64,000 nt of DNA from Candidatus Heimdallarchaeum aukensis (GTDB lineage: Archaea; Asgardarchaeota; Heimdallarchaeia; Heimdallarchaeales; Heimdallarchaeaceae): contig CP084166.1 in NCBI GenBank assembly GCA_021513695.1, positions 1,408,001 through 1,472,000 of the forward strand. The letters run 5' to 3'. Positions 70 through 32,762 of this stretch are shown one piece after another. The first letter of the stretch is position 1. Each line of letters starts with the position of its first letter. The position numbers and the translations under genes are program-made. The notes under the pieces were generated by a model. It worked only from the letters and a program-made list of their open reading frames with translations. It had not been told where the DNA came from and did no database searches.

Positions 70-213
70 ATGAATAAACAAGACACTAAAACTGAACATG
101 AGGAAAAAGAAGAGAAAATTTTCAAATGTACAGGATGCCACACTCCACTCTCTATTTATGATGAAAGATGTCCAAGATGTGAAAGAAAGAATCCGCATTA
201 TATTTATAGGTAA
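70..213 (+). CDS. Small zinc-ribbon protein of 47 aa (CTGC...CPRC)
   Basis: Read directly from the sequence: ATG at 70, TAA at 211-213. Two CxxC pairs. Below the ORF-track size cutoff. Confidence 0.3.
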   Translation: MNKQDTKTEHEEKEEKIFKCTGCHTPLSIYDERCPRCERKNPHYIYR

Positions 214-277
214 CTAGAACTAGCAAAAAAATTATTAATAAATTAATTTTCATAAAAATAAAAAGGATTTGTATAAT

Positions 278-29184: not shown

Positions 29185-30930
29185 TTAATTTTCAAAAACC
29201 GAATGCATGTCTGAAATATCGTCTTCTGGTGTTTCTGCAGTGGGGTGTAGAAACACTTCTCCATCTAATATCGTAAAGGGAATCCTCCTTTTATCGATCC
29301 ATGGTGCAATTTCTCTAAATTCTTTAAAGAGATCATTACTTACAATCATTGCTGTTTCCTCTTCTGCTATTCTAAGAATAAATTTATCTCCGTCAACTCT
29401 CGCAGGTAGCATCTTTATAGCTCCTTCTTTCACTAGTTGATCCAACCTTCTTTGATTATCAATTTGATACCTAAGTGCAGCATCTGCAACCGTAATTATT
29501 TTCTTAAAGTTTGACCGACTAAGTTTATTGATCATTGCTTCAATGTTAGCTAACTTCGGATGACCAGCAGCATCTTTTTCTTCCCAAGCAACATTGCTTC
29601 CATCAACTATGACTACATCATAAGGATAAGTTGTTTCTGGAAATATGCGTTCTTGCTCACCTTTAGTTATCTTTACTAATCCTTTAATGATGTCTCTTGA
29701 GAAATAACCTATTCCTAGAAGTACTGTTATTAAAAGAATGATAATTGTAATATTTTTATCAAATGGATTTAACGGTTCGTCATTAGATATAATCTGAATA
29801 TGAAATACACCACTAAAATAAAAACTTGTAAACCAATAAATATCAGGTTGAATTTCCCAAGCTATTTGAATCGAAAGGGTGATCGTGGTATTGCCAGCTT
29901 CTATGGGTTTATCCTTTAAGATTATATGATGCCCTGAAAAGCTTGGAGATATAGCAAATATTTCTCCATTAACCTCTGAAAAAGCTATTAGAGGACAAGT
30001 GATTTCATGTTCAATATATACAACATCATCCTCAAAATTTGCTATGTTATAAGTGATTGAATAGTCTTTATTTAGTGAAGCATTCACGGAAAAATGAACA
30101 TTACTAATTGAAATATTAGGATAACAGATTATATACAAAGGCTCACTTAATACAATAACAGGATTATCTGGATCATCTAGATTTGTAAATGAAACCTGAT
30201 ATGAATGTTTTTGGTATAAAGGCTCATTTGTAAAAAACCTTATTGTTCCTTTGTAGCTTTCTCCACTATTTAACATTAGATTCAAATATGGAAGATAGAT
30301 AATGGGACTAGCTTCTGTCCCTTGCCGATTAACCAAGGCTGAGATAGTTACATTAGTTACAGCTGTACCCCCAACATTTACCAACTGGAAGTCTACTTCA
30401 GTAGTTGAATTACGTTTGAGGATTATTTTATTATTAACAAATGTCATTTCTATTTGCCCACTAGGGAGAACCTCGAGGGTAAAAATAGCAGTTTGATAAG
30501 TGGTTATGACATTTGTTCCATTAACAAAACTTTCGACTGAATAGTTTCCTGCTGGCTGGCTGTAAAAATCTTTTTTGTTGATTTTTACTACATAATCAGT
30601 TGAAGAATTACTAACTATATGCTTGTTTTCAATGATGTTTGCAGTTTCATAAGAGATGTTATAAAAAATAGTAGCATCACCATCAATAGGACTACCATTT
30701 AACCAAGACAAATGGAAAAATAAAATTAAATCATTTATTCCGCGTTTAATTACAGAAGAATTCAAAGATAAAGTAAAATTCACTTCTGATTTCTCTGAAA
30801 AATTATAATAATTCGAAACTGGTTCTTGTGAAACAATTACTTCAGAATTTGACATTGGAGAACTTATTAAGAAACTTGAGAACATGAAGAATGTGAGGAT
30901 AGATAGCGTAATTACTAGCTTTTTTTTCAT
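29185..30930 (-). CDS. Receptor-like membrane protein with an extracellular region, one transmembrane helix and a cytoplasmic Zc3h12a/NYN ribonuclease domain
   Basis: A signal or anchor sequence (MKKKLVITLSILTFFMFSSFLISSP), then a ~380 aa Asn/Ser/Thr-rich ectodomain, then the TM helix 'ITIIILLITVLLGIGYF'. The following ~170 aa contain 'VVIVDGSNVAW', 'IITVAD', 'MIVSNDLFKEF' and 'W..RRIPF', matching the MCPIP1/Zc3h12a NYN RNase motifs. Confidence 0.7.
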   Translation of the reverse strand: MKKKLVITLSILTFFMFSSFLISSPMSNSEVIVSQEPVSNYYNFSEKSEVNFTLSLNSSVIKRGINDLILFFHLSWLNGSPIDGDATIFYNISYETANIIENKHIVSNSSTDYVVKINKKDFYSQPAGNYSVESFVNGTNVITTYQTAIFTLEVLPSGQIEMTFVNNKIILKRNSTTEVDFQLVNVGGTAVTNVTISALVNRQGTEASPIIYLPYLNLMLNSGESYKGTIRFFTNEPLYQKHSYQVSFTNLDDPDNPVIVLSEPLYIICYPNISISNVHFSVNASLNKDYSITYNIANFEDDVVYIEHEITCPLIAFSEVNGEIFAISPSFSGHHIILKDKPIEAGNTTITLSIQIAWEIQPDIYWFTSFYFSGVFHIQIISNDEPLNPFDKNITIIILLITVLLGIGYFSRDIIKGLVKITKGEQERIFPETTYPYDVVIVDGSNVAWEEKDAAGHPKLANIEAMINKLSRSNFKKIITVADAALRYQIDNQRRLDQLVKEGAIKMLPARVDGDKFILRIAEEETAMIVSNDLFKEFREIAPWIDKRRIPFTILDGEVFLHPTAETPEDDISDMHSVFEN

Positions 30931-31004
30931 TTAATGACCTCCAATGTTATTAGTGAAGTAATAATTCCATTATAGTATATTCTCTTAATAAATCTTTATC
31001 TTAA

Positions 31005-31383
31005 AGGGTGTGCGGGAATACCCCTGATTCTGTTCGGAAGTCATTTACATGAAACTTCTTAGCAACATTCATCTATGCGCTTTACCCGACTTAGAAAGTC
31101 CTATTTAAGCTTGCACCACGATGTATGATCGTTTCATCGCTCCCTCTTTACTCCTCAATAACTTCATAGGACACCCTATGTGTCATATCATTGTCAACGT
31201 AAAGAGGACGTGTCGTTTCTATTTCAGGGACCACGTTCTCACGTGATGGGTTTGCACCCATATCGCTTGTTAGGTGTCAGGAGGTTCCTCAGGTTTAACC
31301 CGAAAGTTGCTCTCCCGCTCACCCTAAGAGTACTATGTTTTTATCAAAAATAAAGATAGCTGTCACAGATTGCTGACATTCTC
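31005..31383 (-). ncRNA. GC-rich non-coding segment downstream of the tnpB remnant; candidate omega-RNA/right-end element, or another structured RNA
   Basis: About 380 bp with clearly higher G+C than the flanks and no ORF in any frame. It lies directly 3' of the tnpB C-terminal fragment on the same strand. Confidence 0.3.
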
Positions 31384-31704
31384 TCACGCTAAAGCGTGGG
31401 AGGTTCTTGATTCTACAGAGAGAAGCAAAGGGCGTGCCACCGCCCCGTTAATGACTCCCGCAGGGAAACGTTCACCCTGAGCGAGACCTATATTTAAACA
31501 ACCTACAGCGTCTCTATGGGGCTCTAAGCCACAATCAAGACATTTGAATAATCTTTTTCTTTTGAATACGTGCGTAGAACGACAACGGGGGCAAATAGAG
31601 GAACTGTGTGCTTCTATAACTTCTTTTACGCTTATACCGTATTCTTCTGCCTTTGCTTTGATTCTCGTAACGAGATAATTATGACTCCAAAAATTGTGTA
31701 CCAT
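31384..31704 (-). pseudogene. tnpB: IS200/IS605-family tnpB (OrfB) remnant; only the RuvC-III and zinc-finger C-terminus remains
   Basis: 106 aa fragment. 'EEYGISVKEVIEAHSSSICPRCRS...FKCLDCGLEPHRDAVGCLNI' matches the TnpB C-terminal 'YTSQxCxxCG...CxxCG..xDRDxNAAxNI' region. The ~300 aa N-terminal part is absent. Confidence 0.7.
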
Positions 31705-31976
31705 AGAATTGGTTTTTTTTTCTCTTTAAATTATTTTTTCTAATTCTTGTTATATTCTTTTTTATTACAGTTTTATATTTAACTTAAGCGTTTTTAATTC
31801 TTACATAATTTATCTCAACCCTGAAGGGTATGAGCTTTTTTGCGTATAAAATAGCAAATATATTTTGAAAATGGAACAAAAATATTAAATCTTAAGTCGA
31901 TACTTTACAACAAAAGACATTAAATATCGAATGATTTATTTAGGTAAGGAAAATTCAATGTTTGAAGAGTGAAAAA

Positions 31977-32054
31977 GGGCCAGTAGTCTAGCTTGGATAA
32001 GGCACCTGCCTGCGGAGCAGGGTATCGCAGGTTCAAGTCCTGCCTGGCCCGCCA
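31977..32054 (+). tRNA. tRNA-Arg (anticodon GCG)
   Basis: Acceptor gggccag/ctggccc. Anticodon stem cctgc/gcagg with loop cuGCGga. T-arm gcagg-ttcaagt-cctgc. Encoded CCA. Confidence 0.85.
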
Positions 32055-32057
32055 TTT

Positions 32058-32762
32058 TTACAGAAGTGAATGTTTTGTTTTATAAAAGGGGCTTGTCTTT
32101 TTCAAGGGAACCTCCAAAAATGCTTCTGCAAACCCCACTTGTGCTTGTGTACCTCTCATTTTTGTTCTATACTTATGAAACTCAATATAGAAATTATTTC
32201 CTCCTTTGTCGAGCTGAGAACTATAACATTTCATAGCTTTTTCTTTTACTTCAACAAAATCTGAAATGTCAACAAGTACATGAGGGTTCGATAATAGAAC
32301 TGTCGTTTCAGTGAAATAAAGCTTAGAAACAATAAAGGAGTTTGAATACTGTGTTTCATGTGCTGCCCATTCTATTGCCTCTTTAACCATAGAACTTGTT
32401 AAACGATGTTCAACATGATAATCATTATCCATATGGGTCACTATTATTTCAGGACGATAAGTAAGAATAAAATCAATAATTTGATTTTTCATTTCTACTT
32501 CATTATTTTCTATTGTTTTGTAATTTAGGATTATTGCTTTTTTAACGTTTAAAATCTTTGTAGCTTCTATGTATTCTTTTTTTCTTACTTCATTTGAAGT
32601 CAAACAAAGCGAATATACATTATTTCCCAAAGCGGAATAGCGAGCAATGGTTCCTCCTGTACTAAAACTTTCATCATCAGGGTGTGCAAAAATAAAGGCA
32701 ATATTCATAAAGAAAATTAAAAAAAAGTAGAGATAAAGATTTCTATCTTCTAAAAAAATCAT
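32058..32762 (-). CDS. LmbE/PIG-L family N-acetylglucosaminyl deacetylase
   Basis: N-terminal 'AHPDDESFSTGG' is the HPDDE zinc-binding signature. 234 aa. Confidence 0.8.
   Translation of the reverse strand: MIFLEDRNLYLYFFLIFFMNIAFIFAHPDDESFSTGGTIARYSALGNNVYSLCLTSNEVRKKEYIEATKILNVKKAIILNYKTIENNEVEMKNQIIDFILTYRPEIIVTHMDNDYHVEHRLTSSMVKEAIEWAAHETQYSNSFIVSKLYFTETTVLLSNPHVLVDISDFVEVKEKAMKCYSSQLDKGGNNFYIEFHKYRTKMRGTQAQVGFAEAFLEVPLKKTSPFYKTKHSLL

Follow-up and report, generated by a model that had tools for sequence, protein, structure and literature searches.

The stretch of DNA analyzed in this study (referred to below as the window) comprises 64,000 nucleotides of contig CP084166.1 (positions 1,408,001 to 1,472,000) from the Asgard archaeon Candidatus Heimdallarchaeum aukensis, whose genome was described in PMC8813620. 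At positions 31005..32054 it carries a GC-rich block, a fragment of the transposon gene tnpB and a tRNA-Arg(GCG) gene. Very probably, this region consists of two unrelated neighbours: the RNase P RNA gene, which is a housekeeping gene, and, lodged between predicted promoters, a 481-bp element derived from a tnpB-only insertion sequence (IS) of the IS200/IS605 type. Both parts are of known kinds, i.e. a housekeeping RNA and a transposon derivative. An earlier annotation made from the letters of this DNA alone (the sequence-only reading) had joined them into one object, treating the GC-rich block as the IS's non-coding tail.

The RNase P RNA gene and the inserted element

The GC-rich block is an ordinary cellular RNase P RNA gene. 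The archaeal RNase P RNA model of Rfam (RF00373) matches 31008..31322 (minus strand) with 178.1 bits (gathering score 84, E-value 3e-51) over its full length (model positions 1-288 of 288, not truncated), and the conserved GAGGAA..UCC and ACAGAA elements are seen in the alignment of this segment to the model. The sequence-only reading had correctly noticed that about 380 bp 3' of the tnpB open reading frame (ORF) were GC-elevated (41-48%, with 41-52% between 31000 and 31550, against 30.9% for the window overall). It took them for an IS tail harbouring the omega-RNA and the right end, with RNase P RNA named as an alternative; when the Rfam covariance search that it had proposed was run, the block matched precisely that housekeeping family, an outcome which the reading itself had listed as refuting, and the IS-tail interpretation is therefore refuted. 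As in other archaeal RNase P RNAs (RF00373, clan CL00002), the gene is single-copy, lies in a conserved neighbourhood and matches the full model, and nothing notable distinguishes the window copy, which has two lineage-specific insertions in peripheral helices. Orthologues scoring 165-173 bits occupy the syntenic position in loci L027 and L028, and the RNase P RNA of L030, from Candidatus Heimdallarchaeum endolithica, is approximately 96% identical to that of the window; in all three of these further Heimdallarchaeaceae genomes the gene adjoins tRNA-Arg(GCG). A permissive Rfam search of 30800..32100 returned, beyond the RNase P RNA, just the tRNA and a chance match, and the omega-RNA-like module described below matches no family described there. 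Public gene calls place a spurious 37-aa ORF inside the RNase P RNA gene (L001 6444..6557 and L031 3671..3784, corresponding to approximately 31150..31260 of the window), which suggests that the RNA is unannotated in those assemblies.

The second neighbour is an internally deleted IS200/IS605-type element (tnpB-only, IS1341-like), extending over 481 bp from left to right end (31373..31853, minus strand). In the sister species Ca. H. endolithica (L030; 88% average nucleotide identity, PMC8813620) the flanks are 96-99% identical to those of the window, while exactly 31373..31853 is absent and no target-site duplication is present. The empty site of H. endolithica reads ...AAAATTTATTTAA directly followed by CAATCTGTAACAGCTAGC..., and at the occupied site of H. 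aukensis ...AAAATATATTTGC borders TATTTTATACGC... at one junction and ...GAATGTCAG borders CAATCTGTGACAGCTATC... at the other. The empty-site junctions coincide with the left-end and right-end boundaries that were predicted independently by comparison of the family, and this coincidence, together with the lack of a duplication, indicates a discrete 481-bp insertion of the IS200/IS605 type. In principle, an ancestral insertion could also have been precisely excised in H. endolithica. At least four further Heimdallarchaeaceae metagenome-assembled genomes (MAGs) have a variant (P0076, 90% or more identical) of the 106-aa ORF that the element encodes, under accessions adjacent to those of the orthologue of the NYN gene located downstream of the RNase P RNA, so close relatives also have the insertion.

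The right end was placed at 31373, where the similarity of the window to every related locus stops, 11 nt past the TGA stop codon of tnpB (31384..31386) and 50 nt before the start of the RNase P RNA. Wherever the end motif was located (20 copies), the element terminates in [GT]ATGTCAG and the flanks beyond it are mutually unrelated. The left end (31814..31853, minus strand) has an 18-nt leader followed by a subterminal hairpin, GCTCATACCC-TTCA-GGGTTGAG (31814..31835). A 40-nt block that contains this hairpin (31807..31846) matches DNA about 150 nt upstream of tnpB in the full-length element L002, and also L005, and the left end matches L017 as well (full length, with an intact TnpB). The left-end hairpin folds as single-stranded DNA, the right-end hairpin lies at approximately 31381..31402, and both are conserved with compensatory changes across copies. 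Ends of the classical IS608 type are cleaved about 18 nt 5' of the left-end hairpin and 8-10 nt 3' of the right-end hairpin, and the geometry in the window agrees with this. The distance from the left-end hairpin to the right end is approximately 1300 nt in L002 and L017, 463 nt in the window and 490 nt in L005; about 820 bp of tnpB have been lost from the window element. The earlier view that only a 3' remnant survives is partly confirmed: the N-terminal half is missing, but the remnant is not isolated, the left end with its hairpin (31853..31814) having been kept.

Between the left-end hairpin and the tnpB remnant there is an AT-rich linker (31705..31813, minus strand; 17-27% GC), the last 30 nt or so of which are degenerate tnpB coding sequence. 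Upstream of the ATG of the ORF, degenerate homology to L005 and L007 was detected, and comparison of the linker with the interiors of full-length elements gave no significant similarity. The position of the transposon-adjacent motif (TAM; 31854..31857, minus strand) is occupied by TTGC in the window, by TTAA in the empty site of H. endolithica and by TTAC in L002, L017 and L005, TTGC and TTAA each being one substitution away from TTAC. The TTAC precedes the left-end hairpin by 18 nt in L002 and L017 and by 17 nt in L005. With TTGC in the window and TTAA in the sister species, both excision and targeting of the donor joint by TnpB may be disabled.

Two further observations concern the ends of the family. 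The first 8 nt past the right end (CAATCTGT) are identical in the window (31365..31372) and in the unrelated Borrarchaeum locus L025 (1632..1639), the other copies differing; this is probably chance. A metagenomic contig (L037) carries a good match to the family left end at 188..218, with no recognisable 3' module in the next 3 kb.

The omega-RNA-like module and the tnpB fragment

The 3' part of the element is an omega-RNA-like structured module of 122 nt (31373..31494, minus strand), composed of hairpins P1-P4 and ending in ...GAGAATGTCAG at 31373. It comprises the last 111 nt of the ORF and 11 nt beyond, and its P4 also serves as the subterminal hairpin at the right end; it is here, and not in the GC-rich tail, that the omega-RNA and right-end element are to be placed. 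A covariance model (R1) was built from seven copies, and the structure was assessed with per-copy folds and the covariance-model alignment. Model R1 gives 119.7 bits at 31373..31494 (minus strand), its only match in the window, and elsewhere 20 further strong, full-length matches (90-149 bits) as well as a few weaker or partial ones. In an alignment of 25 copies fitted to the model, 93.1% of the cells are paired, compared with 44-59% in controls slid by 1-3 columns; 21 of the 35 pairs change on both sides, and not one of 500 shuffles reaches the covariation score observed for the 25 copies. Each copy folds alike despite differing sequences, and RNAalifold applied to a MAFFT alignment recovers just P1, P2 and part of P4, indels in P3 interfering. 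Compensatory changes can alter the encoded amino acids, as in L026, where CAGGGAGA/TCTCCCTG is replaced by CAGAAAGA/TCTTTCTG, which places the constraint on the nucleic acid and not on the protein.

The scaffold of a TnpB omega-RNA ends at the right end of the element and its guide is read from the flanking DNA, while the right-end hairpin is recognised by TnpA on single-stranded DNA (PMC10055086). The position and form of the module suggest that it corresponds to such a scaffold. On the basis of this architecture (PMC10055086), the predicted guide would be the 20 nt directly 3' of the right end, CAATCTGTGACAGCTATCTT (31353..31372, minus strand), overlapping the putative promoter elements of the RNase P RNA gene. 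At the guide position, the empty site in L030 (CAATCTGTAACAGCTAGCTT) differs by 2 mismatches.

Stand-alone modules were observed in Borrarchaeum, at L023 1980..2102 (minus strand) and L025 1510..1631 (plus strand), with unrelated DNA upstream; at both loci neither a tnpB remnant nor a left end was found within reach. In a subgroup from Frey- and Jordarchaeia and Methanomethylicaceae (P0007, P0014, P0017 and P0021; L010 5355..5517), TnpB has a conserved C-terminal extension (...RWNGMKWEPKRAMNNQPMNTLEARIS) and the 3' module has an insertion of approximately 40 nt, by which the reading frame continues through the RNA module.

The truncated tnpB ORF (31384..31704, minus strand; 106 aa) was assigned to Pfam PF07282 (Cas12f1-like TNB domain) with an E-value of 1.2e-16. 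Of the conserved features it has kept the RuvC-II Glu, a CxxC...CxxC zinc finger and the HRD motif of RuvC-III. The sequence-only reading had rightly recognised it as the RuvC-III and zinc-finger C-terminus of an IS200/IS605 TnpB. It is devoid of the N-terminal half, i.e. of the RuvC-I DLG motif and the WED/REC part, and because these are missing the fragment cannot act as a nuclease. The 106-aa protein aligns to residues ~298-396 of intact 396-aa TnpBs, and begins at a Met that is internal to the full-length protein and conserved there (within the shared 'M[IV]HNFWS'). N-terminal tnpB remnants or a second copy were not found in the window by tblastn, blastn and six-frame reading. The closest homologues of the 106-aa protein are 59-77% identical and nearly all short (59-183 aa). 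That the ORF represents a conserved syntenic small gene was considered and rejected, the short homologues residing in unrelated contexts and several of them being tails of split or degraded tnpB genes. A split gene of this kind is found in L002, in which a 278-aa OrfB_IS605 ORF overlaps a 104-aa TNB ORF. The same frameshift splits tnpB before M-HNFWS in L002 (4207..5315) and L003 (1..518), two Ca. Alkanophaga-type contigs from one metagenome, with an ORF overlap of 43 nt in both; this common frameshift implies either that the broken form was copied or that the shift is programmed.

The distribution of the family was surveyed with a 31-nt core pattern in one genome per archaeal or bacterial species, in a collection without the Ca. 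H. aukensis genome. The family was found in Borr-, Wukong- and Jordarchaeum (Asgard) and in Ca. Alkanophaga. Intact TnpBs of 396-414 aa, with OrfB_IS605 and TNB domains, are encoded in Borr- and Wukongarchaeum, and a protein search yielded 975 relatives below an E-value of 1e-40; judging from these intact proteins and numerous relatives, the TnpB family is live. The genome from which the window derives also encodes a member, P0144 (353 aa, 72% identical to the fragment), with DLGA, DES and HRD motifs.

Among known systems, the element most resembles tnpB-only (IS1341-type) members of IS200/IS605, such as ISDra2, IS608 and the ISGst elements (PMC10055086). It shares with them subterminal hairpins at both ends, the absence of a target-site duplication, a left-end cleavage point about 18 nt 5' of the hairpin (adjoining TTAC in other copies of its family), a right end 8 nt 3' of the hairpin, and a structured RNA module reaching from the 3' part of tnpB to the right end. 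In contrast to them, the window copy lacks those ~820 bp of tnpB and keeps the TNB part only, which makes it a derivative and not an intact member, its TAM position holds TTGC, and the omega-like module of its family is almost wholly inside the ORF. Like minimal derivatives of the palindrome-associated (PATE) or miniature inverted-repeat (MITE) transposable element type, it is short, has both ends but no working protein gene, and would need TnpA and, to be retained, TnpB in trans; classical PATEs have no coding sequence, whereas the window element keeps a tnpB remnant of 106 codons and a complete omega module. The sense overlapping transcripts (sotRNAs) of haloarchaea and Sulfolobales are omega-RNAs expressed from the 3' ends of archaeal tnpB genes (PMC12558985; cited in PMC10055086). 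The RNA module in the window likewise is archaeal, structured and on the sense strand, and it overlaps tnpB at its 3' end; sotRNAs were detected by RNA-seq, while this module, from an Asgard lineage, is known from sequence and covariation.

Neighbouring predicted promoters and genes

The tRNA-Arg(GCG) gene (31977..32054, plus strand; found by ARAGORN, Rfam tRNA score 59.9 bits) is divergent from the RNase P RNA gene and lies 272 nt from the start of the tnpB ORF, as the sequence-only reading had estimated (~270 bp). L027 has 160 nt and L028 has 125 nt between the two RNA genes, against 654 nt in the window. On this syntenic evidence, their divergent arrangement is ancestral in Heimdallarchaeaceae and the tRNA gene is an ancestral neighbour of the RNase P RNA gene, not an integration target. 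The notion of a tRNA integration hotspot also disagrees with the insertion point itself, 123 nt upstream of the tRNA 5' end, with the identity of the tRNA in the empty-site genome and with the unrelated contexts in which other copies of the family sit; no att repeat flanking the element was found at the locus and no integrase nearby. In L002 (3766..3867) and L003 (1039..1163), tRNA genes that are 102-125 nt long, and probably contain introns, occur within a few hundred nt of family copies. In total, three of about twenty copies, including that of the window, are near a tRNA, which probably reflects intergenic landing sites and not targeting.

The 50-nt spacer between the right end and the RNase P RNA gene (31323..31372, minus strand) is native DNA flanking the IS and contains a putative core promoter of this gene, with a sequence resembling the transcription factor B recognition element (BRE), AGCTAT (31356..31361, minus strand; -39..-34 relative to the RNase P RNA), and a TATA-like TTTATTTTT (31346..31354, minus strand; -32..-24). 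The motif AGCTAyaTTTAT is conserved 5' of the RNase P RNA in all four genomes (window, L027, L028 and L030), and CTAAATAAATyATTCG is conserved on the tRNA side (31928..31943 of the window). Promoter elements were recognised by this conservation and not with a sigma-70 scanner, the host being an archaeon; AGCTAT and TTTATTTTT presumably act as a promoter, given the usual spacing of archaeal BRE and TATA elements. The IS right end falls at -51 of the RNase P RNA, so the predicted core promoter of this gene is intact. The element thus occupies the spacer between two divergent, predicted promoters.

Directly downstream of the RNase P RNA, on the same strand, a gene encoding an NYN-domain protein of approximately 581 aa is present in all four Heimdallarchaeaceae genomes examined (window 29185..30930, minus strand; L030 4001..5746; L027 5001..6758; L028 5001..6776), and orthologues of the 581-aa protein were found across Heimdallarchaeota. 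In this protein, an N-terminal signal or transmembrane segment is followed by a large middle part and, at the C-terminus, by an NYN (Zc3h12a-like) ribonuclease domain. The protein shows a weak, sub-threshold match to PRORP, the protein-only RNase P (E-value 0.004), and the conservation of an NYN nuclease beside the RNase P RNA is a curious pairing.

Alternative explanations and proposed mechanism

That the GC-rich stretch of ~380 bp is itself the omega-RNA or right end of the IS, perhaps an orphan omega-RNA, is almost certainly wrong. Such a reading draws on the elevated GC content and on the location on the same strand directly 3' of tnpB, where the omega-RNAs of many TnpB families extend, but the stretch is a complete RNase P RNA, present without the IS in L027, L028 and L030, the family homology stops short of it and model R1 matches the 122-nt module only. 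What survives of the orphan omega-RNA proposal is that a complete omega-like module is kept without a functional tnpB; its assignment to the GC-rich tail does not. The 106-aa zinc-ribbon ORF might, alternatively, have been domesticated as a small protein with its own function, given that it is open from the conserved Met to the normal stop of the family with an intact zinc finger and HRD, and that P0076, also of 106 aa, is found beside the same NYN gene in the other MAGs. We regard this as very improbable, since the homologues elsewhere are fragments in unrelated contexts or tails of split genes, the start they share, an internal Met, is the default choice of gene callers, the ATG has no Shine-Dalgarno-like motif in front of it, the sister species is entirely without the ORF, and conservation of the 3' half is explained by the overlapping RNA/DNA structure, in which compensatory changes alter amino acids. 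Even less credible is co-option of the module to regulate transcription of the RNase P RNA or tRNA-Arg, in the manner of nuclease-dead TnpB promoter repressors. The predicted guide covers the conserved AGCTAT/TTTAT motif, the element is situated between two divergent, predicted promoters and a TnpB of the family is encoded in the genome; however, here it is the right end (GTCAG), not a TAM, that precedes the guide-matching DNA, so that a TnpB-omega-RNA complex should not engage it (PMC10055086), the overlap of guide and promoter follows automatically from the landing site, the sister species manages without the element, and P0144 retains its catalytic residues and is consequently not of the dead-repressor type.

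The likeliest of the alternatives, although still rather doubtful, is that the 481-bp short form is itself mobile (MITE- or PATE-like, with an omega-RNA) and arrived short instead of being deleted in place. Both of its ends are intact, and a second short element of the same layout (L005/L006; the 490 nt from left-end hairpin to right end given above) is present in a further Heimdallarchaeaceae genome, in unrelated surroundings; in the window and in L005 alike, homology to tnpB sets in again at full-length coordinate ~978. The insertion is also missing from the sister species despite its nearly identical flanks, and PATE-like minimal IS200/IS605 elements are known (PMC10055086). On the other side, the linker of the window resembles that of L005 only marginally (114 of 2000 shuffles were as good, p ~0.06), L005 keeps approximately 27 nt more of tnpB, and a metagenome scan with a degenerate left-end pattern recovered ten left ends and no more copies of ~480 bp, the sole hit with both ends in reach being full length (~1415 nt); a single in-place deletion accounts for the window equally well.

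Some features fit the reading as an RNase P RNA gene next to an IS derivative with an omega-RNA-like module less comfortably. The pairing counts given above derive from an alignment fitted to the model, P1 of the window is weaker than that of the other copies, and the fold of the whole 142-nt segment reaches only z = -1.75 against shuffles. The TAM position of the window holds TTGC instead of the TTAC of the family, and P0144 as annotated lacks approximately 45 N-terminal residues. No tnpA (Y1 transposase) gene turned up, although no search was aimed at it.

Under that reading, the element arrived by single-strand 'peel-and-paste' transposition 3' of a TTAC-like motif, without target duplication. 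Its left-end hairpin is preserved, as are the final 106 codons of tnpB and the complete 122-nt omega-RNA/right-end module. The data show what the parts are, where the element begins and ends, the insertion polymorphism and the conservation of the RNA/DNA structure; transcription of the module, its use by a TnpB acting in trans and any effect on expression of the RNase P RNA or the tRNA are matters that we infer. By the most likely mechanism, the module, if transcribed, would give an omega-RNA with the guide CAATCTGTGACAGCTATCTT. By the known mechanism, such a guide sends TnpB to the element-free allele (TAM and flank) and not to the occupied locus (PMC10055086). A TnpB supplied in trans could then cut the element-free allele, in which a TAM and a match to the guide are joined, and retention of the element would be favoured, its own locus being protected because the right end, and no TAM, precedes the target. 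P0144, encoded in the same genome with DLGA, DES and HRD motifs, makes a trans-acting partner possible. A bolder proposal, which we consider unlikely, is that the 481-bp element is a self-propagating, 'guide-only' mini-transposon of Asgard archaea, composed of a left end, an internal promoter, an omega-RNA and a right end without a working nuclease, which would be moved by TnpA and retained by a TnpB in trans, and of which the 123-nt modules of Borrarchaeum would be further reduced relatives.

The chief value of these results is a correction: a GC-rich island beside a transposon remnant in an AT-rich archaeal genome is the RNase P RNA gene. They also provide a clean presence/absence polymorphism between two complete Heimdallarchaeum genomes and a case of an essential RNA gene that tolerates an insertion 13 nt upstream of its predicted BRE. 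By-products of the analysis are nucleotide-precise ends and a TAM for a TnpB family found widely among Asgard archaea and also in Alkanophaga. For this Asgard TnpB family, an omega-RNA-like structure supported by covariation is a modest positive result, and the structure model, together with the intact 396-aa TnpBs, could be useful for mining compact RNA-guided nucleases.

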